Both the position numbers and the translations under genes were made by a program. A DNA stretch of 64,000 bases from Candidatus Anstonellales archaeon (GTDB taxonomy: Archaea; Micrarchaeota; Micrarchaeia; Anstonellales; J096), in NCBI GenBank assembly GCA_038890745.1, contig JAWAFD010000005.1:22436-86435 (forward strand), in the 5' to 3' direction. Position 1 is the first letter of the stretch. Each line of letters opens with the position of its first letter. Under the pieces are notes generated by a model. The model did not search any database. It saw nothing but the letters and a program-made list of their open reading frames with translations, and was not told where the DNA came from. Shown here in pieces: positions 1 to 35,684 of the stretch.

Positions 1-1104
1 ACCAAACTGTCCTGTTGCTATTGCTACTCTCTGCTGGCCTGCCCTTAACTCACCTCCTCCGCCCCCCTCCTTCACTTTCTTTCCTGTCCAGAACCTCCCT
101 TTTCCAACTCCTCTTAATCTTTCTTCTACTATTCCCATATTCTCCGCTATCCATGCTGGTCTTCCTCTTATCAACCCTTCTTTTACCCTACCGGGAAGAA
201 TTTTTGTCGCAATTCCTCCCATTGCTTCAACCGCTTTGGTAGCTGCTCTGGTTGTTACAGAGACGCCTTTTTCCACTGCTTCAACAGCTTTTTTAATAAA
301 AGAAACTTTCTTTCCTAACTCAACTGCTTTTCCGCCAAGTTTTTTTGCATGTGGGGCGACCTTAGCCACGACCTTAGCCTGTTGCAGAGTAATCCCTCCC
401 TTCCCTGTTATTCTTGCTCTTTGGCCTGTAATAAATCTTAAAGTATTCAGATCAAACCAGAAAAATGGGCTTCCACCAGTGGCATAGGAAGCAGCGAGAA
501 GCATGCCTGCGATTATAAAAAGAGGTAAGCAGATTGCAGGTGCGGTTCCTCCAAAAAGAGGAGGAAGGAGTGTTGGGATGTAAACGACTTGGGCATATGT
601 TGGGGAAAGGGTTGCAAAAATAGGCTGACCATTTTTATTTATGTATGCTGACTCAGGCCATGGGGCTGGTTTAAACCCTCCGCATGGAGAAACATCTTCA
701 AAAGAGGTTATACTTTCGTTTAGGCAGGGCTGGAGAAGGCAGTTTGGAGAAGAGGAGCAGCAAAACTTTACACCTATCGTACACCCCCTTACCATCCCTG
801 TTCCTGAGCATGTTTCGTTATAAGGTGTTAGGTCAAAAACCGCTTTTCCATTCTCATTTGTAAAAACCCTGCACCTAGAATAAAGGTCACCAGTTGCATT
901 ATACACTTCAATAAATAGGGTTGCGTTCCCAACAGGAAGCCTTTCTCCATTATAAACGGCATACATGTATATATCTACATTTTTTTCAACCAAACCTGCA
1001 ATAATCCCGGATTCATAAGCATTAAAAAGCTCCTCACAGCCAGGGCAGGGAGGCTGAGAGAAAAGCAAACTCATAAAAAATAAAAGAAAAAATACTTTTC
1101 TCAT
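1..1104 (-). CDS. Exported/membrane protein, runs off left window edge (not in ORF track)
   Basis: ATG at 1104 gives MRKVFFFYFFMSLLFSQPPCPGCEELF..., with a signal-like N-terminus, Cys-rich ectodomain, a TM segment (AICLPLFIIAGMLLAASYA) and then a K/G/A-rich region. The frame is still open at base 1. Confidence 0.8.
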   Translation of the reverse strand, partial: MRKVFFLLFFMSLLFSQPPCPGCEELFNAYESGIIAGLVEKNVDIYMYAVYNGERLPVGNATLFIEVYNATGDLYSRCRVFTNENGKAVFDLTPYNETCSGTGMVRGCTIGVKFCCSSSPNCLLQPCLNESITSFEDVSPCGGFKPAPWPESAYINKNGQPIFATLSPTYAQVVYIPTLLPPLFGGTAPAICLPLFIIAGMLLAASYATGGSPFFWFDLNTLRFITGQRARITGKGGITLQQAKVVAKVAPHAKKLGGKAVELGKKVSFIKKAVEAVEKGVSVTTRAATKAVEAMGGIATKILPGRVKEGLIRGRPAWIAENMGIVEERLRGVGKGRFWTGKKVKEGGGGGELRAGQQRVAIATGQFG

Positions 1105-1139: not shown

Positions 1140-4100
1140 CTAATCATCAATCCAGCAATCCGAAACCCTTGTTTTAAGAGGAACGTCAAACCCGCAGAAA
1201 TTCGCGTATGTGCTTCCTCTTACGCATTCCTTGCTCTCATTTCCCGAAGTAGAGAATAGGATAGGAATGGGTTTTATGGAGGAGGACTGAATCGATAAGA
1301 ATGTTTTTGTGTTGTCCGCAACACAAATTTTTGGAAGCCCTTTTATAGAAGCAATTAGGTCTGAATACAAAGATGGCTCTGCCATCACATCCTGCAAAGG
1401 GTATTCCTCAAAAGAATACTTTCCTGCGCTGTAAACCCGACATTTTAGATTTCCAGAATAGGGAGGGGAAATACACATCTCTTTTACAACACAACCCTCT
1501 GGCCATTTCTGATTTCCAGAATATCCAGAGCACTGAAAACCAGTAAGCGGGTCGCCCAAATAATACCCATTACAAACACCTCTAAGAATGTCGACCTCAT
1601 CACATTCAACGCAGACGCACTCCTCGGAAACCTCGGCTTCGCTAACAAACGCATATGGGGTAAGACCTGATGAAATCTCAGCAGAGGATTCAACAGAACA
1701 GTAATCCTGCATATTTAAAGACGAGCCATCTGAGATGCTGAAATCAGAGAAATGCATCCCAATTATCCCTGAATTAACAAACCTTGCCCTTTGATAGGCA
1801 AGGTAGTTGAACATTCCATACTTATCTACAGGAGTGTTTACCTCTCTGATCATTAGCAGGGATGGCTTCCCGAACCTAGAAACAAGTTTTCTTGAAATGT
1901 TGTTTAATTTTTGAACAACGTATTCGTAAAACTTTATTTTTTCCTCTTCATTGTTAAGCGGAATTTTTGGGTTTATTTTTACTTCAACAATAAAAAGGTC
2001 TGAATTTTCCATAAGGGAATTGCATTGCTGCCCTGCAAAAGTTCCTTCCCTGGCACAGAACTCCTCTCCCGCTAAATGGTCTGACATTTCTAAACCATAC
2101 GCACTGTCAAAATTCTCAAGGAAAGACCTTTCAGAGTTTATATCCTGCGAATCAATGCCGGTTATGGTAATCTCACCTGAAAGCGCAGGCATACAATAGG
2201 GGCATGGTTCCTTAACCTCCATTGCCCTCTTCTCTAAATTTATTTCATAGTTGTTTCTTTCTTTTGCATTCCCTATAACAACAATTATCGGCCCCAAAGA
2301 GGATGCAGATTCTTTGTAATCGCCGGCATGGTTTCCTTGGTAGTCATCTGCGGCATAAAGCAGGCTTACGTATATATCGCGAAGGAGTTTGTATGCAAAT
2401 GTTGCATCCTCTTTGTAAACCGTGCGCTCAGGTTCATAGCAGCTATCGCATCCATAGTAAGTTTTGTAAAGCTCATCATCTTCGGCATAAAGAACTGGCA
2501 TAACCCCTGAAAATAGATAAGAAGTAAGCTTTCCTTTCATGTATTTCCAGTGAGGATAGAAATCAGGCCAGGAAACACGGGCATCATAGACATCACCATC
2601 TTGTCTTGTCGCATCCTTGCAGCCAAAAGCTAAATTGTAAGCATCGCACCTAAGCTGGTCATCACGATGCCCTCCACACGCAACCCTTGCATCAACACTA
2701 CCAGTGGAGATAACACGCCCGTTTTCATAAACCTCTCCAACAGTTTTTCCCTCCCACTCATTTGGGTTTCGCGCATTCAGGTTTGAGGGTGGCAGGATCT
2801 CAAGGAGAGGGCAGTAGTTTGCTATTCTTTTGTTTATTTCATTTGTAGTATCAGCCTCGTAATCATTCTTAAAATCTTCATAAGGTCCTTCTGGATAATC
2901 CGCAAGGTCTATTCGCGCTATTCCATTATTTTCAGAAATGGGAAGATCTTCGCTATTCGGGTCTCCGCCAGTCGGGTCATAGAATTCGTTTAATGGGTAA
3001 AGATGCTCAACAGCAATTGTGTTGAAGGTTGCAGGCTCGCACCATCCATATTCCTTTACAACTATGTTGCCCATTTCATCGGTTAAGCAGTTTCCAAAAT
3101 TTCCATCCTTATTTTTTCTTATTACTATTGCTGCGGATGCATACGCGCTGCATTCGCCATCCTCTCCCTGAGAGACGCAAAAATCATCATCTGTTAAACC
3201 AGAGCATATTTCTCTCCAATTTTCACCCATGCTCGAACCATCCAACCCGAATTTCGGGGGATAGCACACGGCGATATCATCTTTGTATTCTTCGCTCATG
3301 CAGTTTTCTATAAAATTCACAACATACGTCCCTCCTTCCTGGCATCCACTCCAGGTGGTTGGAACAATCTGGCAGTAATGAAGAATTGCCCATCTCGTTG
3401 GCTGGTCGTTCGGAAGAGGATAGTTCACAATCGGGCCGAGTGTTGAGCTGACGTCCCTTGAAAGGAATATCATAATCTTCCCATTGCTTATCTTTCCTGA
3501 AACCGGTGAAGGAGGAGTAAACAACCATTCTTCTGTTTTCAGGGATGCTCTACTCACTCCTAGAGTTTCCCCATCCCACATATCCACACTATTTTTTGGT
3601 TCATCTGAAGCAGGAACAGATTTTGTTCTTGTTGGGTTGCAGGCAACAGAGCCATACTCGTAGGAACAGCCGCACTCAACACCTTTGTTTGTTGAAGCAT
3701 GTATGCATACACTCCTTTTGTAAACGTTATTTCCACAAACCCCAGAGTAGCACTCAAACCCGCTCTCACATTCAAACTCTGCTTTTCCACCCTCAAAAAT
3801 CTGTGAGGCATAAATCGTGTGTCTAGGAAGAACGTTTGCATAATAGGTTGGAATTTCCTTAAACCCAAAAATTCCAACAGTTGCAGCAGTCAACCCGGTT
3901 CCTTCTTTTGCGAATTTTAAAACCCCGACATTTGCTGTTCTTCCATCGTTCGGATATTGTAATTCAACCTCTCCCTGGCTCCAGAAAGTATTTCCTCTAC
4001 CAGCTGCGCTCTCATCCTCAACATCTGCCCAGAAAAGCCCTCCGTACCAGTGCTTCACAGAACCCGGCTCATCCCCGAAAGGAGAGTTTGGAAGGGAAAG

Positions 4101-4832
4101 GGATTGGGTGGGGGAGGAGCAAACCATTGCTGGGTTTATCCCTCTGCATTCCCATTCGCACTCATAGTAAGAGGAGTATTCTTTGCCGTTTTCTGTGCAG
4201 GAATAAGCGCCATTTGTTTGTTGGCATTTTTTTTCAGCAAAAAAATAGTTTGAATACCTATCTTTTGTTCCAGTGTAGGAATTTAAGACCTTATCTGAGA
4301 GCGGGAAGAGGTACCGGTAAGTATCGTATTCCTCAAAGCTTTCTCCGATTCCAAACCTAAAACTATTCAGCATAAGCCCTTTGCTCATCGCGCTTTCAAC
4401 AGAAGGGGTCATTTTCAAAACATCGCATTCTGCATGCAGAAGGCCAAAAACAGCTCCTTGGCCTGTTGGAAGTTCTATGTTTCCCTTCTCAACATCCTCA
4501 TGGCTTATGAGAAGGGGAATGCCTATCTTTCCAAAATCACCGCAGAGCATTCCAGAGCATCCCTCAACACAAGATTTTACCTCCCATTCTGAACAAACAG
4601 AATAGTTGAAATCCTCAACCTCACAGAAAATAGGCTCATCATTTTCTTTCCATACTTTACAATCATCTTCACCAGTATAGCTAGGGTCTTCTGCGAGCTT
4701 GTCCGCAAAATAGCATTTATCGTTTTGAGCATATTTGTAAAGGCAGCAGTGCGCCTCTGGTTTCTGGAAGCAACCAACCATAAGAAGAAGCGCAAAACCC
4801 AAAAACAAAATAAATAATTTTCTTACTTTCAT
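1140..4832 (-). CDS. Large Cys-rich secreted protein / putative lipoprotein (1230 aa)
   Basis: Long ORF. Signal peptide ends LLLMVG-C (lipobox-like), with many Cys and acidic composition. Confidence 0.8.
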   Translation of the reverse strand: MKVRKLFILFLGFALLLMVGCFQKPEAHCCLYKYAQNDKCYFADKLAEDPSYTGEDDCKVWKENDEPIFCEVEDFNYSVCSEWEVKSCVEGCSGMLCGDFGKIGIPLLISHEDVEKGNIELPTGQGAVFGLLHAECDVLKMTPSVESAMSKGLMLNSFRFGIGESFEEYDTYRYLFPLSDKVLNSYTGTKDRYSNYFFAEKKCQQTNGAYSCTENGKEYSSYYECEWECRGINPAMVCSSPTQSLSLPNSPFGDEPGSVKHWYGGLFWADVEDESAAGRGNTFWSQGEVELQYPNDGRTANVGVLKFAKEGTGLTAATVGIFGFKEIPTYYANVLPRHTIYASQIFEGGKAEFECESGFECYSGVCGNNVYKRSVCIHASTNKGVECGCSYEYGSVACNPTRTKSVPASDEPKNSVDMWDGETLGVSRASLKTEEWLFTPPSPVSGKISNGKIMIFLSRDVSSTLGPIVNYPLPNDQPTRWAILHYCQIVPTTWSGCQEGGTYVVNFIENCMSEEYKDDIAVCYPPKFGLDGSSMGENWREICSGLTDDDFCVSQGEDGECSAYASAAIVIRKNKDGNFGNCLTDEMGNIVVKEYGWCEPATFNTIAVEHLYPLNEFYDPTGGDPNSEDLPISENNGIARIDLADYPEGPYEDFKNDYEADTTNEINKRIANYCPLLEILPPSNLNARNPNEWEGKTVGEVYENGRVISTGSVDARVACGGHRDDQLRCDAYNLAFGCKDATRQDGDVYDARVSWPDFYPHWKYMKGKLTSYLFSGVMPVLYAEDDELYKTYYGCDSCYEPERTVYKEDATFAYKLLRDIYVSLLYAADDYQGNHAGDYKESASSLGPIIVVIGNAKERNNYEINLEKRAMEVKEPCPYCMPALSGEITITGIDSQDINSERSFLENFDSAYGLEMSDHLAGEEFCAREGTFAGQQCNSLMENSDLFIVEVKINPKIPLNNEEEKIKFYEYVVQKLNNISRKLVSRFGKPSLLMIREVNTPVDKYGMFNYLAYQRARFVNSGIIGMHFSDFSISDGSSLNMQDYCSVESSAEISSGLTPYAFVSEAEVSEECVCVECDEVDILRGVCNGYYLGDPLTGFQCSGYSGNQKWPEGCVVKEMCISPPYSGNLKCRVYSAGKYSFEEYPLQDVMAEPSLYSDLIASIKGLPKICVADNTKTFLSIQSSSIKPIPILFSTSGNESKECVRGSTYANFCGFDVPLKTRVSDCWIDD

Positions 4833-4841
4833 TCTCTCCCC

Positions 4842-5798
4842 CTAAACCAATTTTGAGACCATTGAGATGAATGCTGTTGGCATCCCACCAAGTATGACTG
4901 TTGCAAACCTTATAAAAACAAAGGAAAGGGAAAGGGCTGCGAGGTTTCCAAGTAAAATCTGGTAGAAAACAGATGCCATGAAGTCCTGCATTGATTTGTG
5001 TTTTATCCCCATCTGGGCTGATTGCATGGAGAACCTGCTAAAATCCAAATCAAACCCTCTTCCTATGCTCAAATAGGTTGGGTAGTTGCAAACGGTTTCA
5101 GTTTCGAGCATAGGGGATTTTGGAGGGGCAACAAAACCCGATGAGGCAATCCATAGAACAGATGGGTAGATGTAGTAAAGAGCAATTGCTATTGAAATGA
5201 ACAGAGCACCAAGCCCACGGGTAAGCTTCATTGCGCGGAGAACTATTCCAACTGGAAGGAATATGGAGAGCATGTACTTTGAGATGTAATCTAGAACGTA
5301 GTATTGCGCTGCTAGGAAAACAGAAAGCTCTGTTCCTTTTTGTGTAAGGAACTGAACTTCAGAAACTCTTCTGTATATCGCCTCCCACCATCCCCCCTGA
5401 AAAATGGGGATGCCATACCATCCAAGATAGATTGATGAAAGTGGCATGACCCATCTCGCATCAGATGCTGCTGAATTCAGCACATCCTCCATTGATGCGA
5501 GCATGAGGAGCGTCTGCTCTTTTGACTGCTCAATCGCAAGAATGTTTATCGGACCCGGAGTTTGCGGGGGTGTAAGAAGGGTTGAAATCCCATTCAGTAT
5601 GAAAACAAGGAATATTATACCCAAGGCAACTGCAATATTGTCTATTATTTCAGCAATGGCAATCGTTTGCCCCCTCATGTCCATGAACATTTTCGCGAAC
5701 ATGTAATGGATTACTTCTATAAAAAATAGTATGAGCACTGAGAGGATTGCAACAATCCCCCAGTTTGTTTCCCAATCAGCAAGAAAATCCACCATCAT
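4842..5798 (-). CDS. Multi-pass membrane protein, CedA/VirB6-like paralog 6
   Basis: Shared motif FLPVGIVLRAMKLTRGLGALFISIAIALYYIYP; C-terminal ILGG; overlaps the upstream stop. Confidence 0.7.
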   Translation of the reverse strand: MMVDFLADWETNWGIVAILSVLILFFIEVIHYMFAKMFMDMRGQTIAIAEIIDNIAVALGIIFLVFILNGISTLLTPPQTPGPINILAIEQSKEQTLLMLASMEDVLNSAASDARWVMPLSSIYLGWYGIPIFQGGWWEAIYRRVSEVQFLTQKGTELSVFLAAQYYVLDYISKYMLSIFLPVGIVLRAMKLTRGLGALFISIAIALYYIYPSVLWIASSGFVAPPKSPMLETETVCNYPTYLSIGRGFDLDFSRFSMQSAQMGIKHKSMQDFMASVFYQILLGNLAALSLSFVFIRFATVILGGMPTAFISMVSKLV

Positions 5799-6880
5799 AC
5801 CATCCTCAAGAATCTTGCGATCTCTATTTCCTCCCCAAGGAATTTTCCGAGAGCGATTATTCCAGCAGAGGTGCCTATGAAGTTCAATGAAAGCAGGAAT
5901 GATGAGATTAAAAAGCTTATCGCACCGTATGTAAGCAACCTATCAAGAGAAACCGAGCAGACAGAGCCGTGCTGTGGTGGGCTGAGGTTTTTGCACAAAT
6001 ATATTTTTCCATCATGCTCCTTGAAAAAATAATCAAACTGCCCGAATAAGAATATGTTCCAGTCAAGCCCTCCCTTAAAGTATGGGTCTTTTTCATCTAT
6101 GTTCAACCCTCCTGGGGATGTCAAGTAGTGGATCTCATTTTGATTATCATATCCCCATTTTTCAGGCCTGAAAACAAGCCCTTCTATAACAAGAAGGGTA
6201 GGGAAGAAAACAATGAAGCCGGCTCCTATCGCAAGCAGAACACCCCCAACCCTTCTTGCAAAAGGTATAGATCGAAGGACAAGCCCAAGAGGGATGATAA
6301 GGAGGAAGCCCCCATTCATAAAAGAGCGCAACAGATATTTCTGCGAAAGAATGGTGAGAAGAGAAATTGTTGTTGTGTACGCCTGTGCGTTAAGAACGGC
6401 TGAAATCAAAGATGCCCACGCATCAGGGTTTAACCCAACCCCTTGGCCTGCGAGGAAGCACCAAAGGCTTTTACACTCGTATTTCCATACTGAAGAAATA
6501 AATCCTGCCATCATATTGTATATCCTTGTCATACGCATGGTGTTGTGCACATAGATACTCATGTTATCAAGGTAAGCATCTGCAAAATCGTACATACACA
6601 TATCTCCCTGCACTGAAAACCCTGTTAGTTCGGAAAGCACGGAAACATTGTAAATTGTTCCAAGATTGAGGAAGCTGAGGATAAAAACTGAGATGAGAGT
6701 TGAGAAAAAAAGCTGTGGAATCTCATCATGCGCCCAAACATCCAGTTTTGGGTTGTTTGTTATTTTTCCAATCATGTAAATTATTGAGATGATTATTGCA
6801 GAGGAAGCGATGCCTATGGCCATGGCTGTGTACACAAAGCCCATGTTCAGCATCTCAGGAGTAAATGTTGTACAGGTCAT
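5795..6880 (-). CDS. Multi-pass membrane protein, CedA/VirB6-like paralog 5
   Basis: Start moved to ATG 6880 (ATGA overlap with the upstream stop). Motifs NNPKLDVWAHDEI, IIPLGLVLRSIPFARRVGGVLLAIGAGFIVFFP, FLGEE. Confidence 0.7.
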   Translation of the reverse strand: MTCTTFTPEMLNMGFVYTAMAIGIASSAIIISIIYMIGKITNNPKLDVWAHDEIPQLFFSTLISVFILSFLNLGTIYNVSVLSELTGFSVQGDMCMYDFADAYLDNMSIYVHNTMRMTRIYNMMAGFISSVWKYECKSLWCFLAGQGVGLNPDAWASLISAVLNAQAYTTTISLLTILSQKYLLRSFMNGGFLLIIPLGLVLRSIPFARRVGGVLLAIGAGFIVFFPTLLVIEGLVFRPEKWGYDNQNEIHYLTSPGGLNIDEKDPYFKGGLDWNIFLFGQFDYFFKEHDGKIYLCKNLSPPQHGSVCSVSLDRLLTYGAISFLISSFLLSLNFIGTSAGIIALGKFLGEEIEIARFLRMV

Positions 6881-7899
6881 GCTATCCTCTCCAACTGCGC
6901 CAGCACAAAGGCGTACACCTCTGCGCCAAAGGCTTTTGAAGACGCACCTATCAGGGAGATGAGGACTAGAAGGGAAATCCCCTCTGAGAACATGGATTTT
7001 ACGAGCGCAAGGAAAACAGGACCGGAATAATCTGCGTTTATCATTGTTTCTGTCGCCTCCATGGCGTCGTACACCGGGTCTGCAGAACCGCTGCGACCCA
7101 TGTTCGTTGCCTTGCACTCAATTTTGGATGTGTCCACATTTATAGCCGGGTTGAGAGCGTTGATGTTTTGATACTCTGTGGAAACCCCATACATGAAAAC
7201 AATCATAAGCGGGTAGACAAAATAAAGCCCGAACGCAAGGGAAAGCAAAAACCCTCCCAGCCCCCTGCTTATCCCAAAGCATCTCATAAATATCCCAATC
7301 GGAAAAACAATCAAGAGAACAAAATCAGGGGTAAGCTTAAGGAGGAATATCTGGGAGCTTGTTGTTGCAATGGAAGCGCCAACTGTAGCTGCGTACATGC
7401 TGAGTGGGCTGGAAAACGCACTGAAGCCCATGCATGGGTTGATGCTGAAACCCATGTACACTCCTTTGCAATAGAAATCCTTTGTGGATTCCTTACTAAT
7501 GTCTTTTGAAACTGCTGCTATCTGGGTTAGGAGGAGTGTCTGCTCAGAGAGAAGCCTTTCGCTTATGTCTATTGCGAAGTTTATGTGCTTGGGTGTTGGA
7601 ACTGCATTAAGATTCTCATTCGGGAACCAATAGGAAGCAGCCCCTGCGGAAAACTGATCTATGATCGCAACCGCGAAAAGGAAGAGGGAGAACATGGCAA
7701 GGGTTGCGATCCACTCGTACGCCTCATGCTTGGCTGCAAGCTTCAGTCCCTCGCTCTCAAAAGCTATTCCGACCGCGTACACAACACTAATGAGTAGGGC
7801 TGCGATGAGCATCGCAAGAATGGAGGAAACCTCCCAGTTTTCTGGCTGGGCTGCAAAGGAAAGAGCAAACATCAACAGGAGGAATAATATTTTTCTCAT
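6877..7899 (-). CDS. Multi-pass membrane protein, CedA/VirB6-like paralog 4
   Basis: Signal peptide. Motifs ESEGLKLAAKHEA, VFPIGIFMRCFGISRGLGGFLLSLAFGLYFVYP, AFGAE. Confidence 0.7.
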   Translation of the reverse strand: MRKILFLLLMFALSFAAQPENWEVSSILAMLIAALLISVVYAVGIAFESEGLKLAAKHEAYEWIATLAMFSLFLFAVAIIDQFSAGAASYWFPNENLNAVPTPKHINFAIDISERLLSEQTLLLTQIAAVSKDISKESTKDFYCKGVYMGFSINPCMGFSAFSSPLSMYAATVGASIATTSSQIFLLKLTPDFVLLIVFPIGIFMRCFGISRGLGGFLLSLAFGLYFVYPLMIVFMYGVSTEYQNINALNPAINVDTSKIECKATNMGRSGSADPVYDAMEATETMINADYSGPVFLALVKSMFSEGISLLVLISLIGASSKAFGAEVYAFVLAQLERIA

Positions 7900-9620
7900 A
7901 AAAGCTCACCCAAACCAGGAACGAAAAGCTCCCCTCCTAAAAATGAGGCAAGCCCTGAGATGAAAACTATTGTTGCAGCTATGTTGAAAAGCGGAAGGAG
8001 GTAAGCGCTTATCATTATTTTCGCAACGTTTTCAACAAAACGAATGCCCGTGAGTGCTCCCCGGGAGGAATGGGTCTGGGTCGGAATTTTTGTGGCGCAA
8101 TGCTCCTCGCATTTTGCAAAAACAGGTGGATTGTAGGAAAAGCCTGGATCATCAAAATCAAGAATGGCTTTGCAGTCAGCCTTTCCCATATCCTCATGTA
8201 TTATGTAAACGCTCGTTTGCTTAGCTGCATTAATCATTCCCTCCCTGTTCTCAGCATAAAAACTCGTGTTTGCATTCTTCCATATCCGCCCTGGATTTTG
8301 CGGATAGTAGCTTTCGCATCCTGACTTGAATGTACTATAGTTTATATGATCATAGCAGTAGGAGGTTCCATTTGTATAAACCGCCATGCAGAAAGATGGG
8401 CAGTACTCGGATGAGGAGGGAATGGAAAAGGGTGCAACAACCCTACACCTTGAATCAACGTTTTTCAATTTTTCATAATCAGGTTCAAGAACAACCCTGG
8501 TCAAAAAGCATTTTTCTCTTGTTTTAAAAATTTCCGAGCAATTTTCTTTCACATCCGCGCAAAAAGGATTTTCAAATGGATAGGGAAGAACACGGCAGAA
8601 TGAAGGGCAGGTTGGTGGATAGTCGCAGGAGCATACACCGCCAAAACATTCTTTACTTCCATTATATATTCCTTCTAACTCCTCATTCGTCCATTCATTC
8701 TCCCGCGCAATTTGTATGAGCTGCAAATATGAGATTGAGTGTGTTGAGTTGTAGGCTACGGGTGAAAACATTTTGCATTCAAGAGGGCACTGCTCACCAA
8801 AGTCATACCCTATATCAGTAGAGAACCTGTTTTCTGTTATTGCGAAAGTTAGCAGAAACATCCCGGGAAAAACAACCATCGCCCCAAACCCAACAGCAAT
8901 CAACGTTCCTCCCCATCTTCTAGTGAGGAAGAAAGAGCGAAGGATAACTCCAGTAAGTATGAAAAAAGGCCCAAGGACAAATGCCATGTTATCCAAGAAG
9001 AATTTCTCGGCTAGTAAAAGGGAGTAGGCAGAGCTTAAAAAATCCATCAAAACCTGATCCCTTATAAGATAAATGGAAAAACCACTAGATATACTTAAGC
9101 TACCATAGAGGTAAAACCACCATCCAGGCTCGTCTATCGTAGAACTGGTATCCCCACCAAACCCTAATGATGAGGAAGAAATTTTGCCCCAAGTTATCGC
9201 ATCAAAGTATATCTCTTCAGCAATTCTTCTTACCTCCTTTATATACCATCCCAAATATTCAGAGGCGCTTCCTGCTACGCAGTTTCCCTGCGCGCATGGA
9301 ATTACCTGGGATGCAAGCGCATCCAAAAAACCGATGAAAGCAATTATAAAAATTACTATAAGCGCATTTATGAATATTTCTCCAAGCTCTATCTTTCCCC
9401 ATGCCTCAAGCTGGGAAAGCCCAAAGGATTTTCCACCAACTATGGCGAATATCGCAACCATGAGTGAGATAAGGATGAGAAGAAGAGAAACGAGTTGCCA
9501 GTTTGAGAGGACTGCTGAAACAAAGGTTGTTTGCGGAAGATTTTCGAGTGCCTGAGTGTATGTGGGCAGCTGGGCAAAAAGCAAAAGAACCAGCAGCAAA
9601 AGAATAAATATCTTTTTCAT
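7896..9620 (-). CDS. Multi-pass membrane protein, CedA/VirB6-like paralog 3 with Cys-rich insert
   Basis: Motifs GLSQLEAWGKIEL, ILTGVILRSFFLTRRWGGTLIAVGFGAMVVFP, FLGGE. About 230-aa Cys-rich loop. Confidence 0.7.
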   Translation of the reverse strand: MKKIFILLLLVLLLFAQLPTYTQALENLPQTTFVSAVLSNWQLVSLLLILISLMVAIFAIVGGKSFGLSQLEAWGKIELGEIFINALIVIFIIAFIGFLDALASQVIPCAQGNCVAGSASEYLGWYIKEVRRIAEEIYFDAITWGKISSSSLGFGGDTSSTIDEPGWWFYLYGSLSISSGFSIYLIRDQVLMDFLSSAYSLLLAEKFFLDNMAFVLGPFFILTGVILRSFFLTRRWGGTLIAVGFGAMVVFPGMFLLTFAITENRFSTDIGYDFGEQCPLECKMFSPVAYNSTHSISYLQLIQIARENEWTNEELEGIYNGSKECFGGVCSCDYPPTCPSFCRVLPYPFENPFCADVKENCSEIFKTREKCFLTRVVLEPDYEKLKNVDSRCRVVAPFSIPSSSEYCPSFCMAVYTNGTSYCYDHINYSTFKSGCESYYPQNPGRIWKNANTSFYAENREGMINAAKQTSVYIIHEDMGKADCKAILDFDDPGFSYNPPVFAKCEEHCATKIPTQTHSSRGALTGIRFVENVAKIMISAYLLPLFNIAATIVFISGLASFLGGELFVPGLGELL

Positions 9621-10531
9621 TGCACACCACCAAACGAGAGTGCTCTCCTTATCGCATCTATGGAGCTTATGGTGATTGCGAGAGCTATATTAGGGAAAAG
9701 TATTGTGTAAGGAAAGAACTTTGCAAACGCAATAAACCCATTCGCTTCGCAGCCACCAAAAAATGGGTCGCTTGCAACAGCGGAATTGCACGGAATGGAG
9801 ATGCTATCATAGCTTACTGCAAAAACAGAGTAGGAGAATGGAAGGAGGATGTAGAAAGAAAAAATAATCCCGAGAAGGATGTTCCCAGCCTCCCTTGCCT
9901 GCGGAACGAGCCGCGCCATGACTGCGAATGGTACGCTCCACGGAACGATCACATCCAAAGCAAGCTCAAACATTATTCCCTGCATCTTTGCTGAAAGAAG
10001 GAGCATGGAAAGAAGGTTTATGAGAATCTCAATCTGTGAGGCAACAATCTCCCTCCAATAATTCGTGTAAAGTACAACCCCACTTCCAGAAAAGTCGTAC
10101 CTTCCAGCGTATACAGAAGAGAGGATGCGGTAGTCGAAATAATCGCTGTACAACGTTCCTATCGTATTCTGGAGCTCGTTCTGCATTTTTGAAAAAAAGT
10201 TTTTTGAGTACTCAATTGGGTTATGAATTCCAGCGTACGCTGAGAGGTAGGAAGAAAAAATGGTGCAGCTTCCTATGAATATTCCCTGGATAAGCAAAAG
10301 CATTAAAACGGTTATAATTAGGTGGGAAAGTTCCTCTTTAGCAAGGACAATGAAGTTTGGAAAATGAAACGCAGAGCCGATTATGTAAACTATTGCGATA
10401 AGAAGGGCTGCAATCCCAACAAGTACCATAAGCACATCCCACCAGAAGTTATCCATTCCTGTTGTCGGGTCGCATACATTCTGAGCAAAAAGCAGGGAAA
10501 ATACCATGAGTAAAAAAAATGCTTTCTTCAC
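9617..10531 (-). CDS. Multi-pass membrane protein, CedA/VirB6-like paralog 2
   Basis: Start moved to GTG 10531 after a GGTGA RBS. Motifs HFPNFIVLAKEEL, SVPFAVMARLVPQAREAGNILLGIIFSFYILLP. Confidence 0.65.
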   Translation of the reverse strand: MKKAFFLLMVFSLLFAQNVCDPTTGMDNFWWDVLMVLVGIAALLIAIVYIIGSAFHFPNFIVLAKEELSHLIITVLMLLLIQGIFIGSCTIFSSYLSAYAGIHNPIEYSKNFFSKMQNELQNTIGTLYSDYFDYRILSSVYAGRYDFSGSGVVLYTNYWREIVASQIEILINLLSMLLLSAKMQGIMFELALDVIVPWSVPFAVMARLVPQAREAGNILLGIIFSFYILLPFSYSVFAVSYDSISIPCNSAVASDPFFGGCEANGFIAFAKFFPYTILFPNIALAITISSIDAIRRALSFGGVQ

Positions 10532-10535
10532 CCCA

Positions 10536-11660
10536 TCACCCTGTAAACCTTGAAAATCCATACATGAAAAATTCCCCTCCCAGTGCAATCGAGATGGAGC
10601 GGTAGGCACTAACCACTATAAGAGTGACTGAAACGAAGAATATTGTAAGCGTTGTGCTCAGCTCGATCACTGCTGGAATGAAAACGTCCATAACAGGAAC
10701 GAAAACCTCCGGAACCGTACTCATGAATTGAAACTTTATTACTGCCGTAAATTGCAATACGGCCATAAGAACAAATGCAGCACTGTACAGGAAGTCAACT
10801 ATATGTTCGCATACGTTATAGGGAAGAAGCCAGAAAAGCGGGATGCATATCGCAACATCGTAAACAAAATCCGTCGGTTGGACAAATGACTGAAATAATG
10901 GCGAGCATACAACTGGTGCAAACTTACTAATCCTCATAGGGTCTGGAATACTGCGATCCATTGACATTTCCTCAATATTATTCACAATCTCATTGTAATG
11001 AGGCATGGAAACTGCGACATCAAGAAAATCCCCGACAACAACAACCGCAGCAGGAAGAACTATGGCTGCTGAAAGGGCTAATGCGATCAGGGTCGCACCT
11101 ATTTTTCTTGTTCCCGGCATAAGCCTGAACGCAAATGCAATGGGCATGAGCCAGTCCTTTGCTATCCACGCTGCAAATGGGATTAAGATTTTCAGCGAGA
11201 CAATCGCAAAATAGAATGTGGAAAGAACATTTCCTATTCCATGGAGAGAAGAGGAAACAGGACCAAGCCCACGAAATGGCGCCTGACCCATATTAAGCTG
11301 AAAAATTGAGATGGGAATGGCTATATTGTAGCTTAGGCCGGCATACTGCCCTACTCGTGTGAGAACAGCGGAATACTGAACAAATAAAAATTTTGTTTTG
11401 TTTTCAAATTTTTCCAGCAAAGAGCCAGAAAAGTCCCCCACATTTTCATAGCCTGTGTAGGTTTTTATGAGTGAGTCTATTGAGTTTAGCATCCCAAAAA
11501 TTATTATGAGGAGCAGGATTCCTGTTATGGTTGCCCTCACCTCCTCTTTCACTTTCGCATCGAACTGAGGGTTGTTCAGAATTCCGGCGAGCATGAACCC
11601 AAGTGCTATCACAAGAATCGAAATGCCTATGATCGCAGGTAGGCAAAAGAATGGGTCCAT
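10536..11660 (-). CDS. Multi-pass membrane protein, CedA/VirB6-like paralog 1
   Basis: Start moved to ATG 11660 (MDPFF), which avoids overlap with the divergent gene. Motifs NNPQFDAKVKEEV, LMPIAFAFRLMPGTRKIGATLIALALSAAIVLP, ALGGE. Confidence 0.7.
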   Translation of the reverse strand: MDPFFCLPAIIGISILVIALGFMLAGILNNPQFDAKVKEEVRATITGILLLIIIFGMLNSIDSLIKTYTGYENVGDFSGSLLEKFENKTKFLFVQYSAVLTRVGQYAGLSYNIAIPISIFQLNMGQAPFRGLGPVSSSLHGIGNVLSTFYFAIVSLKILIPFAAWIAKDWLMPIAFAFRLMPGTRKIGATLIALALSAAIVLPAAVVVVGDFLDVAVSMPHYNEIVNNIEEMSMDRSIPDPMRISKFAPVVCSPLFQSFVQPTDFVYDVAICIPLFWLLPYNVCEHIVDFLYSAAFVLMAVLQFTAVIKFQFMSTVPEVFVPVMDVFIPAVIELSTTLTIFFVSVTLIVVSAYRSISIALGGEFFMYGFSRFTG

Positions 11661-11721: not shown

Positions 11722-12567
11722 ATGAGAAAAATTATTGTATTGCTTATTGTGTTGGGAATGTTCGGAAGCGTGTTTGCAGCCACAGAGCAAAAGCTCGAGA
11801 TAATAGTAAAGGAGGTTAAGCCAGTTGTTTCCATGCAACCAATGAATTGCGACCCTGCAAACAACGGACCATTCAAGTTTATGATAACCCTTGGGTTTAA
11901 CAACGATTATCAAGTAGATGTTCCGGTATACTACTCGCTCTATGACATGAGAACAGGGGTATGGGTTGATAAGGACCTTCTTCTCGTTGTGGATGAGGGG
12001 AATATTGAGGATAAACAGGTTCAGTTTGATTTCTACTATGGAGGAAAAGGGAATGGAACGGTTGAGGTTCCGGCAATAGAGTTAAGGTATGCAGACCCTC
12101 TGCATGAAGGACTTACTATTAGAAAAAATATTACACTAACCGTTGACCACTGGGAAACAACAAATGAAATAATGGTTAAAAGGAACCTCGCGGAGATCGA
12201 GGGTTTGGTTTCTCAGATTGAAGAAAAGGGATGCGATGCTAGTGAGATCAAAAACAAAATAACTGAGATAAAAAACCTTTTGACAATATGCGAATGCCCA
12301 AATGCAAACAAACTCGCAACGCAAGTGAAATCACGGGCAAGTACTTTGCTTGCAGAATGCGTTCCTCCTGCTCCTGAGGAGGAGGAAGAGGAAATAAACA
12401 TAACCCCTCCGGAAGAGGAGAAACCACATGAGGAGGAAAAACCACCAGTAATAGAGCAACCTAAGGAAGAAGAGGAAGAAGAACCGGTGAAAGAACAGCC
12501 CGGCATGTGCCCATCGGCATTCGTTTTGGCAGCACTTGGGGTGGCGTTAGCTAAATGGGAGTATTAG
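11722..12567 (+). CDS. Exported surface protein with acidic/Pro linker and C-terminal Cys-hydrophobic sorting-like tail
   Basis: Signal peptide MRKIIVLLIVLGMFGSVFA; PEEEEEE/PPEEEKP linker; ends GMCPSAFVLAALGVALAKWEY. Confidence 0.75.
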   Translation: MRKIIVLLIVLGMFGSVFAATEQKLEIIVKEVKPVVSMQPMNCDPANNGPFKFMITLGFNNDYQVDVPVYYSLYDMRTGVWVDKDLLLVVDEGNIEDKQVQFDFYYGGKGNGTVEVPAIELRYADPLHEGLTIRKNITLTVDHWETTNEIMVKRNLAEIEGLVSQIEEKGCDASEIKNKITEIKNLLTICECPNANKLATQVKSRASTLLAECVPPAPEEEEEEINITPPEEEKPHEEEKPPVIEQPKEEEEEEPVKEQPGMCPSAFVLAALGVALAKWEY

Positions 12568-17176: not shown

Positions 17177-18847
17177 ATGGCAGAACCAAAAGAAAAATAT
17201 CCTGTTGCGATAATGCCTGCAGATGCATTAGCATATGCTGAACCAAAACAAAAAAAGAGGATAAAAGAACAAAAAGAACAGCCAAAAAAAGAGATTAAAA
17301 AAACATATAACGAATTGAAGGTGGGCGATGAGGTTATTGTTTCCACTGATATGGGCGGTCCTTTTGGTAGGTATGATTTTCATGGAAAGGTCGTAAAAGT
17401 TACTGATTATGCGGTAATGATTGAAGCTCCTGTTACTGAGGAATGGAGAAATTATTGGAAGGCAACTCTGCACAGCATGGCTCCAATACTACCAGTACCC
17501 TACTCTATACTCTTAGGGGAGCTTGGCACAGACCCGTTTGGTTTTTGGGACTGGATGAAAAAAAATGCCGCGGATAAATTAGGAGGATGGGCATCTAGGA
17601 TCGAAGTAAGACCAACAAAAAAGGGATCTGTTTTGAGATATATTCTATACAAAGGCGATATTGAGAAGGGATACGTAAAAGAGTTGAAAGTCGGGGGGGA
17701 AGCAAAAACTTATCCTGGTGAATATGGTGGCAAGCCAATCCCAGCACCCGAAATGTTAAAGGAAGAAAAGCCAAAAAAAACCGGGGTAGGAGGGGCAAGA
17801 CCAAGGGTCGGAAGAAAGGCGGTTTCAAAAACTGAAATTGAAGAACTTGAGGGAAAAACAACAGAAGAACTTTTCAGCATGATTACACTGCAGTATGATG
17901 TGCCTGGAAAGTATAAGGGGTACAGCTATATGGGCGGTGCGAATGGTTTGCAGAGCGGGATAGAAGTTGCAATTGTCCAAATTTTGGCAAACAGACTTTT
18001 TGGAGCAAATTTACTGGTAAATGGAGTGTATGATGCAGAAACCATGGCTGCTGTTAAAGCACTCCAAGGAAGGGTAGGGGTTACGCAGGATGGGTATTTT
18101 GGAATTGATACCAAAACTGCACTTGGGGAATACTTAAAAATGAGGGCACCACCGAAAGAAGAGGAAGGGGAAGGGGGAGCTCCACCGGGAGAAAAACCAG
18201 TTGCTCCAACTCCAGGAGAAGCCGTGTTAGGAAGATTTGTCTTTACAAGAGAGATTGATAGGGATTACGTAAAACCACCGAAAGGACCAACCCAACTGAT
18301 GGACGAAAATTTCTATGTCAAGACAGATAGTGGATGGCTGACCGCAAAGGAGCTAGTAAGAAAAGACCTAAATGAAATAGACAAAAACTGGGAGACAGAT
18401 AAGGCCACAGCTGCAACTGTGGCATCAAAGGAGAACTGGAATACTAGAACGCTAACCAGAAAAAATATTGGTGTATTCTCTTGGGCAAACACAAAAAAAG
18501 TTTTATTCCCATACCTATATGCAAGTGGACAGATGGTTGAATTTAGAACATGGGAACCACTGGAAATCAAAAATGAGGAAGGAGAGGTAGTATTAAGAGT
18601 AGCTGCTGGGCAAGTTGTGCAAGGAGTAATCAGAGAATATGATGAAGGAGGAAAGGACGGGAGTATTACAATGGAGGTTACCGCAGTATTAGATGATTTT
18701 ACTGTTAATGGAGGAAAGCCAATAAAACCCAGCGGGGAAGAAACCAAACCCTCACCTGCTGTTGCAGCTATACCTACACCTACGGTTGCAGAAGGGGAGG
18801 AGGTATCTGATTTGCCGCCTCCGGCAGCAGAAAGGGACTATTCTTAA
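17177..18847 (+). CDS. Hypothetical protein with central peptidoglycan-binding-like (PG_binding_1) domain
   Basis: EVAIVQIL...VNGVYDAETMAAVKALQGRVGVTQDGYFGIDTKTAL fits the PGBD DGxxGxxT double-motif pattern. Confidence 0.7.
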   Translation: MAEPKEKYPVAIMPADALAYAEPKQKKRIKEQKEQPKKEIKKTYNELKVGDEVIVSTDMGGPFGRYDFHGKVVKVTDYAVMIEAPVTEEWRNYWKATLHSMAPILPVPYSILLGELGTDPFGFWDWMKKNAADKLGGWASRIEVRPTKKGSVLRYILYKGDIEKGYVKELKVGGEAKTYPGEYGGKPIPAPEMLKEEKPKKTGVGGARPRVGRKAVSKTEIEELEGKTTEELFSMITLQYDVPGKYKGYSYMGGANGLQSGIEVAIVQILANRLFGANLLVNGVYDAETMAAVKALQGRVGVTQDGYFGIDTKTALGEYLKMRAPPKEEEGEGGAPPGEKPVAPTPGEAVLGRFVFTREIDRDYVKPPKGPTQLMDENFYVKTDSGWLTAKELVRKDLNEIDKNWETDKATAATVASKENWNTRTLTRKNIGVFSWANTKKVLFPYLYASGQMVEFRTWEPLEIKNEEGEVVLRVAAGQVVQGVIREYDEGGKDGSITMEVTAVLDDFTVNGGKPIKPSGEETKPSPAVAAIPTPTVAEGEEVSDLPPPAAERDYS

Positions 18848-21747
18848 TCCTTTATTTTATATATTTTTACATTCTCATCCGGAGTAGTGTAAACAAGTTC
18901 AAACCCATCGAGCTCTTTCAGGAAAAATCCTTTGTATAGATTAGAATCATAAAACCTTCCTTTTCTATCCTTCCATCCATCCACAACCGTTCCGTTCTCA
19001 AGCCAAACCTTATCCTTTGTGTACACAAGGGTATAAACATCATACCCGCCAGATGAGGTTTTTCCATCATACAAAAGGAATGCCTTATTTAGGAGGAGCT
19101 CGCCTGCTTCATTTTTTCTATCTAAATAGTATGTTGCAGGTATCTCGTTCCCATTCGCGAGCGTGGTTGTGGAGAGGCAGTAGAAAGGCTTGAGAGAGCT
19201 CTGAATGCCTGATGGGGTTTCAACGGCACTGATTACATACGCGATCCTTCCTTTCTTTCCTGTAACGGGTGAAATGGTACATTCCTGATTTGAAACATAC
19301 ATCTGCTCCCAACTATTCTCAAATTCACACAAGCTTGAGCCAGGCCATTTTGAAACATCCGTAAGGTTTGCATGGGAGCACGCCAAATAATTCAATGCCC
19401 CGAATTTTCCTCCAAAATGTCCTCCTGTGAATATTAGTTCAGAATCGAAAAGGGCATACTCTGCACCATACTCTTTCATCGTCTCTTTTAGCGCAGGCTC
19501 GCTTTCCATTATGAATGCATACGCAACATGCGTAATCATATCGTGGTAGGCATGCTCATTTCTTATCACGGCATTCCTCAGGGCAAAAAAGTTCTCCCAA
19601 TGCCCATAATCCCACCAGCTTATTATTCTTGAACCCTCCGGAGTGTTGTGCCTAAGCCATTCCATAGAATCTATCCAGTATGGGGCAACCCTCTGGCATC
19701 TTATGGTCGCGGCAAGCTGCTCTGATGACGAAGGAGAGGTTGGGTTTGAGATAAGAGAGTATACGCACAATCCATAATCAAACTGGTAGTTTATTCCTTT
19801 GTTTGAGTATGCAATTGGGTCCTGGGCTGCTTCGCATGCTTGGGTTAACCCAAGGGAGCAGAGGTTTGCCATTTTTGATTGGAGTGCTAGGGGGTTGTCC
19901 TGAAATCTTACTTTATATGAATTGAATAGAAGCGGGCCTGTGTATGAAGCAGGGTCAAGGAAGCCCTCAAACAGAACAACAAAAAGCCCAAATGCAACGA
20001 GCCCATGGAAGATTTTTTTCTTAGAATTTTCATCCTTTGCAAAACCCGAGAGCATGTGCTCAAATTCTCCAAGTACTACTCCAAGAGACATGGCAAGAAA
20101 ATATCCCATGTAGATTGTGTATTTTGCTTTTATTATGCCAACAAGAGAGACAGGAAAAACTATTGCAAGGAAAAGAACGATTAGGCTGTCTTCACCCTTC
20201 ACAAATTTTCTATAAAGTGCGTATCCAGAAGCAACGAGAACTAGAAATATGAAAAACATAAGAAAGCTCACATCCTTATCCTCATACACAAGCGAGGATT
20301 CGAATATTGTGTTTGCAATCCCAACACCTATGTGATACATGGTATTAACGAACGAAGTAAATATGCTGAAAAATCCGTACAAAACATCCTGTTCTGAAAA
20401 TGTTTTCCCCAAAAATCCAAGAGAGCCGTAGAAGCTTCCTCCTGCAAGACCCTGCTCCTGGATTGTTCTGTGGAGAGGGAGTGTATACTGGGCGACTTGG
20501 AGGGAGTTTGAGGCAATGCTTTTGACAATATCGCCGAATGGAGTAAAAAAGAATGCTATCACAAGAACAGCCATAGCAATTCCTGCATAATTCATAATTT
20601 TTGATTTATCAAGGGAATAGGTTTTTTCAAAGTAGAGGAGAGCGGCCATAAACGCAACAACCCCGAAAAGGGCATAGCTCAGACTTCCGCCAAAATCAAA
20701 AACAAACCTTGCATTTGTATATGTTGAGTTAAGGGTTGAGGAAATGATAAGAGCAAGAAGGACAATTCCGTTTATGATAACTGGCACAAGGCTTTTCTCC
20801 CCTTTCATGAAAATATGGATAGCATGAATTGGGATGAAAATTAGGAGGGCTGAGAGAGCAACAACTATGGAGGAGGAACCAAAGTATATTGCAACAATAG
20901 CAAGGGCTGAGAGAATGGCAAACAGCAGGTCTCTGTTTTTTATCGCGAGCGCGTAGGACGCAAAAAAGAATGAAACCGAGAAGAATGCATATGGCTGGAT
21001 CTCAAACTCGCCTCCCATTGTTTTTATAACAAATATTGGGATAAAAGAAGCGAGGAACGCTGCAAGAAGGGAATATTCCCTTCTGTATTCTGATGATAGG
21101 AAGATGTAAAGAAAGAATACCGCAAGGGCTGCTGCTATGGGAGGGTAGATGCTGCAAACAGCAGAGAGAAGGTAATTATCTGCTTTTCCCCCCCATGTAT
21201 AGAATGAATACCACTCCGCCTCCAAAAATGAAAGGACTGGCTTTACCCTGTGATGGACCTCATGAGGCCACCATGCTGTTCCATCATTGAAAGGAGCATA
21301 CCCTTTTGTAAGATAGAGGTATGGCTCGTATGCATAATAGTAAGGGTCAAGCTCCTGATAGATCGGTCCATAGCTCTGCAACCTTATCCAGAATGCGAGG
21401 ATTACGAGTAGTATGATCCCTAGAAAAACCCATCTGTTTTCCATGGCTTCGTTTTTTATTCCGCTCAGTCCTTCAAACCCTTTTTTATAATAAAAAACTG
21501 CTATCGAGATCGCATAGAATATAAGGGTTGTGGTAAAGGCAAGGTTGAAAGAGTAGTTTATCCCGGCGAGCTGGGCAAGGAATATAATAAGTGGTGGGAG
21601 AATGATCCCAAGCGCAAAACCAAACCCTATTTTTTCTATTAAAAGAAGCTTTTTTTCCTTAAGAATGCCCAGGGCAAGCAGAACGCCTGGAATAAAGTTT
21701 GCCAGAAATACCCATAGCAAAAGATAGAACGGATTGAACGAAAACAT
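18844..21747 (-). CDS. aglB: Oligosaccharyltransferase STT3/AglB
   Basis: ELDPYY, TIQEQ and WWDYG motifs; many TM helices. Confidence 0.92.
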   Translation of the reverse strand: MFSFNPFYLLLWVFLANFIPGVLLALGILKEKKLLLIEKIGFGFALGIILPPLIIFLAQLAGINYSFNLAFTTTLIFYAISIAVFYYKKGFEGLSGIKNEAMENRWVFLGIILLVILAFWIRLQSYGPIYQELDPYYYAYEPYLYLTKGYAPFNDGTAWWPHEVHHRVKPVLSFLEAEWYSFYTWGGKADNYLLSAVCSIYPPIAAALAVFFLYIFLSSEYRREYSLLAAFLASFIPIFVIKTMGGEFEIQPYAFFSVSFFFASYALAIKNRDLLFAILSALAIVAIYFGSSSIVVALSALLIFIPIHAIHIFMKGEKSLVPVIINGIVLLALIISSTLNSTYTNARFVFDFGGSLSYALFGVVAFMAALLYFEKTYSLDKSKIMNYAGIAMAVLVIAFFFTPFGDIVKSIASNSLQVAQYTLPLHRTIQEQGLAGGSFYGSLGFLGKTFSEQDVLYGFFSIFTSFVNTMYHIGVGIANTIFESSLVYEDKDVSFLMFFIFLVLVASGYALYRKFVKGEDSLIVLFLAIVFPVSLVGIIKAKYTIYMGYFLAMSLGVVLGEFEHMLSGFAKDENSKKKIFHGLVAFGLFVVLFEGFLDPASYTGPLLFNSYKVRFQDNPLALQSKMANLCSLGLTQACEAAQDPIAYSNKGINYQFDYGLCVYSLISNPTSPSSSEQLAATIRCQRVAPYWIDSMEWLRHNTPEGSRIISWWDYGHWENFFALRNAVIRNEHAYHDMITHVAYAFIMESEPALKETMKEYGAEYALFDSELIFTGGHFGGKFGALNYLACSHANLTDVSKWPGSSLCEFENSWEQMYVSNQECTISPVTGKKGRIAYVISAVETPSGIQSSLKPFYCLSTTTLANGNEIPATYYLDRKNEAGELLLNKAFLLYDGKTSSGGYDVYTLVYTKDKVWLENGTVVDGWKDRKGRFYDSNLYKGFFLKELDGFELVYTTPDENVKIYKIKD

Positions 21748-21780
21748 GGGAGAAAACAGAACAAAAAAATATTTAAACCG

Positions 21781-22785
21781 CTATGATTGGGCGAGCAGGA
21801 GCGCATCCTCTCTCTCAGCAACTTCTGGTTGTGTTGCAAACATATACGGAGATTTCACTCCGCTAACTATCGCAGTCACAACAACACTATCCTCACTCAT
21901 GGATGGGTTTACCCGTGCGCCGAGCTTAACCTCTGCATCAGGAGAAAAACTAATGGTCATGAGCTCGCCTATCCGTATTGCCTCCCCAAGGGTAAGTTTT
22001 GGGCTTCCCTCAACATGCACAAGGGCTCCTTTTGCATCCTCATAATCCACCTCCAAAAGTGGATGGGTCAGGGTATTTTTCACGGCCTCTTCAATCTTAT
22101 TCGGACCTCTTCCCTCCCCCAAACTTATCATGGAAAGACCTTTCCTTGCCATAACTGCCTTAAAATCGGCAAAATCCATGTTTAGCATGGATGGGAGGAC
22201 TATAGAATCTGAAATTCCCTTCACCGCCCTTCCAACTATGCTGTCGGCAAGCTCAAACGCTTGATTGAGAGGAAGGTCTGGAAAATATTGGACTAGCCTG
22301 TTATTATCTATCACAACAACCGTATCACAAACCCCCATGAGTTTTTTTATACCCATCTGCGCTGTTTTTATCCTAGACCTTTCAAGCGCAAAAGGATAGG
22401 TGACCATTCCGATTACTATTGCTCCTTTTTCCTTTGCAACATCTGCAACTATGGGTGCAGCACCTGTTCCTGTTCCGCCGCCCATTCCCGCGCATATGAA
22501 AACAAGCTCGTTATCCCCTATTCTTTCAGAAATAAGCTTTCTGTCTTCCTCAGCGCATTTTTTTGCAACATCCGGCATCCCGCCTGCACCGAGGCCTTTT
22601 GTAATCTTTTTCCCAATAAGAATCTTCTCGTCAGCGTGAATGAATTTTAGATGTCTTGCATCAGTGTTTACTGCAATTGTTCGCGCGCTTTCTATTCCTG
22701 CTCTCTTCAACCTGCTGACCGCATTGCTTCCCGCTCCACCAACTCCGATCACTGCGATTCGCACATCTGCATTGTTCGCTGCCAT
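21781..22785 (-). CDS. ftsZ: Cell division protein FtsZ (downstream copy)
   Basis: GVGGAGSN, GMGGGTGTG, T7 loop NMDFAD. Start 22785 after GGTGA. Confidence 0.95.
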   Translation of the reverse strand: MAANNADVRIAVIGVGGAGSNAVSRLKRAGIESARTIAVNTDARHLKFIHADEKILIGKKITKGLGAGGMPDVAKKCAEEDRKLISERIGDNELVFICAGMGGGTGTGAAPIVADVAKEKGAIVIGMVTYPFALERSRIKTAQMGIKKLMGVCDTVVVIDNNRLVQYFPDLPLNQAFELADSIVGRAVKGISDSIVLPSMLNMDFADFKAVMARKGLSMISLGEGRGPNKIEEAVKNTLTHPLLEVDYEDAKGALVHVEGSPKLTLGEAIRIGELMTISFSPDAEVKLGARVNPSMSEDSVVVTAIVSGVKSPYMFATQPEVAEREDALLLAQS

Positions 22786-22829
22786 CGGGATCACCGGTCG
22801 CAAAAACAAAAAATAAAAAAGAAAAAAAG

Positions 22830-23903: not shown

Positions 23904-24065
23904 CCTGGTCACCTCGCAGAGGTCTTAAAACATATATTTATATAGTTTATTTTTTTCGTCGAAGAATAGAATACACATTTTTCAACCAAAACTATCCACT
24001 TCCACTAATCCAAGACGAAAAATATTTAAATGTATTTATTGAATGCATTTATTGAGGCGATCAGG

Positions 24066-35487: not shown

Positions 35488-35620
35488 GCTTTCACCTTTT
35501 CCTGCATCGCCGAAATCTTTGCTTGGGTCCAAAAGGACTTGGCGATGCACTGGACCCATAACCCTGTTTATTCGTATGAATAAACGGGTTGAAAACTTCT
35601 CAAACATAAGCTTTATAAAG
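35488..35620 (-). promoter_or_regulatory. S-layer promoter and structured ~100-nt 5' leader
   Basis: TTTATAAA box near 35612-35619; 5' hairpin 35560-35590; two crossing helices 35503-35558. Confidence 0.7.
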
Positions 35621-35684
35621 TTTTTCTCTAAGTATAAAGAGATATTTATAAAAAATTGAATGGAGCATGGCAATCAACGAAATA

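Follow-up and report, generated by a model that had tools for sequence, protein, structure and literature searches.

The stretch of DNA analyzed here (the window; 64,000 nucleotides, C5:22436-86435) is part of contig JAWAFD010000005.1 (C5) of a Candidatus Anstonellales archaeon (G000) of the phylum Micrarchaeota, the 0.99-Mb genome of which is 94% complete. Close homologs carry the label Candidatus Anstonellales at their source and the Atlas clusters belong mostly to Microcaldota, which places the archaeon in Micrarchaeota (DPANN), a group whose members largely depend on hosts. It carries six consecutive paralogous genes, G1 to G6, of a system that is real, unnamed and widespread in Micrarchaeota and that works like the core of a type IV secretion system (T4SS) or of the Ced system, yet is not CedA. 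The paralogs stand in fixed order, are coupled in one operon with two further genes, G7 and G8, and co-occur, in some lineages by physical linkage, with VirB2-like pilins and an apparently split VirB4. On balance, we favor the reading that these six membrane proteins, divergent and VirB6/CedA-like, assemble together as a single stalk within a chromosomal T4SS-like machine for contact with, and protein delivery to, neighboring cells. The T4SS-type identity of the system is very probable and the assembly of the six paralogs into one hetero-oligomer is probable, whereas a role in contact and protein cargo rather than DNA is put forward tentatively.

Results

The six genes of the array are as follows (positions in the window).

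10536..11660, minus strand: G1, VirB6/CedA-like paralog at position 1, 374 aa
9617..10531, minus strand: G2, position 2, 304 aa, with a GTG start, a signal-peptide-like N-terminus and a shortened C-terminus
7896..9620, minus strand: G3, position 3, 574 aa, of which 20 are Cys, with a Cys-rich insert of ~270 aa before the last helix
6877..7899, minus strand: G4, position 4, 340 aa, the genome's best match of the CedA hidden Markov model (HMM) NF041796
5795..6880, minus strand: G5, position 5, 361 aa, with an AlphaFold2 (AF2) model
4842..5798, minus strand: G6, position 6, 318 aa

An earlier note on this DNA had described six consecutive, tightly coupled minus-strand genes, and the open reading frame (ORF) calls bear this out, with intergenic gaps of 4, -4, -4, -4 and -4 bp along G1 to G6. 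Pairwise identity among the six is 15-25%. In a pairwise phmmer comparison with the genome's 7,689 six-frame ORFs as the search set, G1-G2 (4.5e-8), G4-G5 (1.2e-8), G3-G5 (2e-7) and G4-G6 (6e-7) were among the significant pairs, and some other pairs were not significant, yet all six are linked. A profile built on G1 to G6 retrieved seven more ORFs at E<=1.1e-11, with the next match at 0.19. Judged by sequence comparison, the homology of the six thus exceeds chance, and the paralogy proposed in the note is significant. The three signatures that it had regarded as common fared unevenly. Motif (ii), PxGxxLRxxxxxRxxGGxLxAxxxxxxxxxP, is present in all six, in 9 of the 13 family members and in none of the 1,103 other called ORFs; motif (i), xxPxLxxxAKxE, was found in only three of the six, its Glu being the sole invariant residue, and the C-terminal xLGGE-like motif (iii) in only four (G6 ends in LGGM and G2 is shortened).

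The likeness to CedA and VirB6 was supported at both the sequence and the structure level. NF041796 matched G4 at 7159-7491 of the window (E 1.5e-4), a match that spans the region of motif (ii), in agreement with the proposed resemblance of this motif to a conserved CedA region. Positions ~90-200 of the model matched only G4 and one further paralog, the singleton described below, in this genome, and gave matches in 25 of 61 genomes. The AF2 model of G5 (pLDDT 83) had R388 TrwI/VirB6 as its top structural match, and its top whole-length matches were R388 VirB6/TrwI (PDB 7o3v, 8rt9, 8rtd) and Legionella DotA-IcmX (9ngy). Remote CedA/VirB6 homology, as claimed earlier, is therefore supported; a check against TrbL and TraG_N was negative, these Pfam profiles giving no match for G1 to G6 or 18 other family members. 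Membership in CedA itself was ruled out, the best NF041796 score being 20.1 bits in this genome and 26.8 bits across the 61 genomes against a curated cut-off of 330 bits. Each paralog is predicted to have five hydrophobic segments and carries, in addition, variable domains at the surface. The predicted plan of a subunit begins with a pilin-like hairpin at the N-terminus, continues through two long helices and the helix-turn-helix of motif (ii), and places a variable, outward-facing domain ahead of the last helix. Across arrays, median protein length is greatest at position 3.

The seven further paralogs constitute a second six-gene array, B (C1:232511-239086), which is likewise trailed by genes of the G8 and G7 types, and a singleton (C1:82157-83080). 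The paralog family was present in 30 of the 31 genomes of a near-relative set and in 135 of the 151 Micrarchaeota genomes of a phylum survey (each at least 80% complete; G054 counts as one row, and no conclusion rests on it). In the other 16 genomes (lineages f16, f20, f22, f23 and f24, and six of the eight of f17), neither the paralog family nor the pilin nor the VirB4 N-terminal gene was found. Protein representatives matching the family at E<=0.001 numbered 3,596. A tree of 145 sequences (24 six-gene arrays and the singleton, six loci with a hit number other than six being excluded) clustered the proteins by array position, with positions 1, 2, 5 and 6 each uniting A and B copies (local support 0.84-0.95) and positions 3 and 4 forming separate A and B clades; its deep nodes are weak. 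This grouping by position indicates that the whole operon was duplicated, with each position keeping its identity. The gene-order check suggested in the note agreed with this, since the order 1 to 6 was kept in 14 of 15 held-out loci. Three single-contig genomes of f13/f14 each have one six-gene array and a singleton, and they were excluded from the conserved-order claim because their position classes are ambiguous. At another locus (G028, L044:2733-5030), a 765-aa gene lies immediately before an array; by eye, its product resembles a FlaI/VirB11-type ATPase.

The note had seen no ATPase or CedA1-like pilin in the window. Neither a VirB4 nor a pilin is encoded there, and the genome-wide search for VirB4/CedB and VirB2-like pilins that it called for located both partners by profile matches on other contigs. 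There are two VirB4-like ATPases, with best matches to CedB/VirB4 at scores under the cut-offs, and just before each ATPase gene stands one whose product has a fold like that of the VirB4 N-terminus (one of the two was modelled); VirB4 would accordingly appear to be encoded in two pieces, an N-terminal part and an ATPase part. Three VirB2-like pilin candidates were found (E 0.014-0.1 for two), and a homolog matched TrbC at E 1e-4, still short of the gathering score. The VirB2-, VirB4- and VirB6-like parts are scattered over four contigs in this genome and lie in single operons in genomes of f15 and f13/f14. Relaxase PF03432 was not found in this 94%-complete genome, its control being detected; PF13814 was not found either, with no control detected, and other MOB families were outside the search. 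No VirD4-type coupling protein was recognized in this genome, nor VirB5 or VirB7-10 alongside the six-paralog system. Two loci elsewhere were noted: a singleton locus in G120 (L116:3472-10882) comprises a pilin, a paralog, the VirB4 N-terminal gene, an ATPase, a coiled-coil protein and a second ATPase of 740 aa, itself a possible coupling protein, and in G033 (L086:5484-8627) an intein with LAGLIDADG domains lies inside the VirB4-like ATPase.

The operon extends past G6, with G7 after a gap of 9 bp and G8 after a gap of 35 bp.

1140..4832, minus strand: G7, 1230-aa Cys-rich predicted lipoprotein
1..1104, minus strand: 5' part of G8 (full G8 772 aa, C5:23539-21221)
C5:13018-21232, outside the window: after G8, five orphan cassettes encoding tips, plus six partner genes in convergent orientation

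G7 had no Pfam or NCBIfam match, and its homologs sit directly after most A-type arrays. The G7-type lipoprotein of array B (C1:243663-246089, L036:13663-16089) matches the transglycosylase SLT domain in part (E 7.6e-4; its 19.5 bits fall short of the cut-off of 21.3), which recalls VirB1. G8 consists of a signal peptide, a Cys-containing domain, one conserved transmembrane segment and a variable helical tail; its homologs have the signal peptide and one transmembrane motif in common and diverge over the 600-3,800 aa thereafter. Four of the five orphans repeat part of the G8 junction (residues ~491-595, 86-100% nucleotide identity), and the fifth has 137 bp in common with the first. Every tip, including that of G8 itself, stands tail-to-tail with a gene of 150-193 aa bearing a signal or lipoprotein-like N-terminus. 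The six tips are related variants of each other, as are the six partners, and one tip-partner pair is conserved in a genus mate, G001 (55% and 47% identity). GC content here is 0.34-0.40 compared with ~0.42. No orphan cassettes were found at 12 other G8 loci, and the contig of G002 terminates within the junction. Logan contigs from three runs of one study, one possibly the source sample, contain joints among junction copies; these fit cassette reshuffling, and assembly across repeats could yield the same picture. By simple topology, the G8 tail would be cytoplasmic and the partners outside, an arrangement that would require transfer. A ParE/RelE-like toxin gene (E 5.4e-5) also lies within the cassette array (C5:14643-14921, L039:4643-4921).

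The runs that contain this DNA are hot-spring metagenomes (four of the five belong to one study). Other features were noted in the window and the genome.

11722..12567, plus strand: divergent membrane-anchored gene that shares a 61-bp intergenic region with the array; among the loci fetched, a homolog was found in one genus mate only, and the gene is probably outside the core system
17177..18847, plus strand: 556-aa protein with peptidoglycan-binding domain PF01471 (E 2e-6, above the cut-off), which could hint at bacterial contact
18844..23912 and 32719..35673: presumably, by eye, genes for an oligosaccharyltransferase and an S-layer-like protein and two ftsZ genes in tandem, all ordinary
C1:86169-87651: DprA gene (E 1.2e-60) with a one-mismatch copy of a 16-bp palindrome, just downstream of the singleton-ATPase operon and not seen at related loci
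C1, C2 and C4: eight perfect copies of the 16-bp palindrome

Discussion

By analogy with R388, a VirB4 motor, here most likely that of the C2 operon, would lift VirB2-type pilins out of the membrane onto the stalk, where they would build a pilus or conduit, and G7 would bind the target surface. G8 may be a passenger or tip, with the C-terminal variant setting specificity, and the convergent partner may be the neutralizer of that tip. The R388 VirB6/TrwI stalk and the Legionella DotA-IcmX protochannel likewise have a pair of anchor helices near the N-terminus, followed by long helices in the stalk. Both are built from five identical subunits and sit in diderm envelopes together with VirB5 and parts in the outer membrane, whereas the archaeal system has six subunits that all differ. 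That there are six genes is no proof of a hexamer, since the solved VirB6 and DotA structures are pentamers (PMC12857230). Rickettsiales likewise have tandem extended VirB6 paralogs (four in Anaplasma; PMC7648143) with very variable hydrophilic extensions in host-dependent cells; they differ in belonging to another domain of life and in having four paralogs rather than six, and no full VirB set is present here. The chromosomal T4SS of Patescibacteria (PMC12102498) and the giant VirB4 proteins of nanohaloarchaea (PMC10266531) are also relaxase-free T4SS remnants with pilin arrays in reduced episymbiont genomes, with a proposed action on hosts; lineage and architecture differ, and the available text of these two articles does not mention a six-paralog VirB6 array. 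Our literature search found no description of the six-paralog system, supplementary annotation tables, which could name the genes, lying outside its coverage.

In polymorphic toxins of the CDI/Rhs type, one complete gene precedes a series of alternative C-termini; these start with copies of a common junction, and a small partner gene accompanies each of them. The five orphan C-termini here, with their junction repeats and partner genes, show this layout, and it is likewise that of TraG/Eex entry exclusion (PMC11493245). In contrast to both, no known toxin domain was found, and the partners lie on the opposite strand and have signal or lipoprotein-like N-termini; G8 itself is not VirB6-like. 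A toxic action of the tips and protection by the partners are putative, and the five alternative tips may let cells distinguish kin from strangers.

The principal alternative, which we regard as possible though on the unlikely side, is that the machine imports or exchanges DNA in the manner of Ced/Ted, to serve repair or the supply of nucleotides; the six paralogs would then be the DNA channel, and G8 and its partners a filter of the entry-exclusion type. Ced of Sulfolobales (CedA/CedE, CedA1, CedB/CedD) and Ted of Thermoproteales (TedA, TedC, TedB) are chromosomal, relaxase-free T4SS cores with a VirB6-like channel protein, a VirB2-like pilin, a VirB4-like ATPase and paralogous subunits, and the pilin-like N-terminus of their channel protein (PMC9905601) is also predicted for the paralogs here. 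The closest named families are CedA, CedB and CedD, the pilin-singleton-ATPase locus resembles cedA1-cedA-cedB, and Ced, too, has paralogs among its channel and ATPase subunits (PMC11868833) and works without a relaxase. Moreover, the tips, and likewise the partners, are related to each other in sequence and do not fall into separate toxin classes, a pattern shared with exclusion groups (PMC11493245). The system differs from Ced and Ted in the six fixed paralogs per array, the two arrays plus singleton, the scores far under the CedA and CedB cut-offs, the five predicted hydrophobic segments and the apparently split VirB4. Against DNA exchange stand the large variable surface inserts, G7 and G8, which are without Ced counterparts. 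The 16-bp palindrome was in none of eight system promoters checked (best 6-7 mismatches), and DprA was above the cut-off in 7 of the 151 genomes; both are weak points, as Ced needs neither, and the palindrome, DprA and two-family relaxase tests discriminate weakly between protein delivery and DNA exchange.

It is improbable that the six proteins are a platform for pilus assembly and adhesion only, with no translocation. R388 VirB6 has been described as a platform that recruits pilins and whose resting structure is closed (PMC12857230, PMC12624023), many genomes have several pilins, the members of arrays, which reach 1,352 aa in total length, bear large inserts at the surface, and the absence of a recognized coupling protein would also suit such a platform; however, the tip cassettes and cognate partners are hard to account for without delivery or recognition across cells, and two motors and two arrays are retained. 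That the paralogs are an unrelated helical membrane family, convergent with VirB6/CedA and co-occurring with the partners from shared ancestry only, is highly improbable and largely refuted by operon linkage, three independent components that indicate a T4SS being encoded in one operon in several families. A bolder extension of the contact-and-delivery reading, which we consider rather doubtful, is that most Micrarchaeota have a vertically inherited archaeal T4SS, with six distinct VirB6 subunits forming the ring of its channel, by which they dock to neighbors and inject proteins into them, and that in this genus G8 swaps tips guarded by cognate immunity lipoproteins for contact-dependent kin discrimination.

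The system bears on how DPANN archaea attach to other cells and exchange material with them. A cryo-tomography study of a Micrarchaeota co-culture centers on nanotubes, with VirB, Ced and type IV secretion unmentioned in its main text (PMC11329633). The locus supplies a definite set of parts, which 135 of the 151 genomes sampled, all smaller than ~1.6 Mb, have retained, and the matter thereby becomes testable by proteomics, tomography and structure prediction. The array of tip cassettes allows a direct test of toxicity and rescue, and a contrast in lifestyle with the 16 family-negative genomes would be informative. If the reading is true, six non-interchangeable stalk subunits would break the pentameric rule for VirB6.
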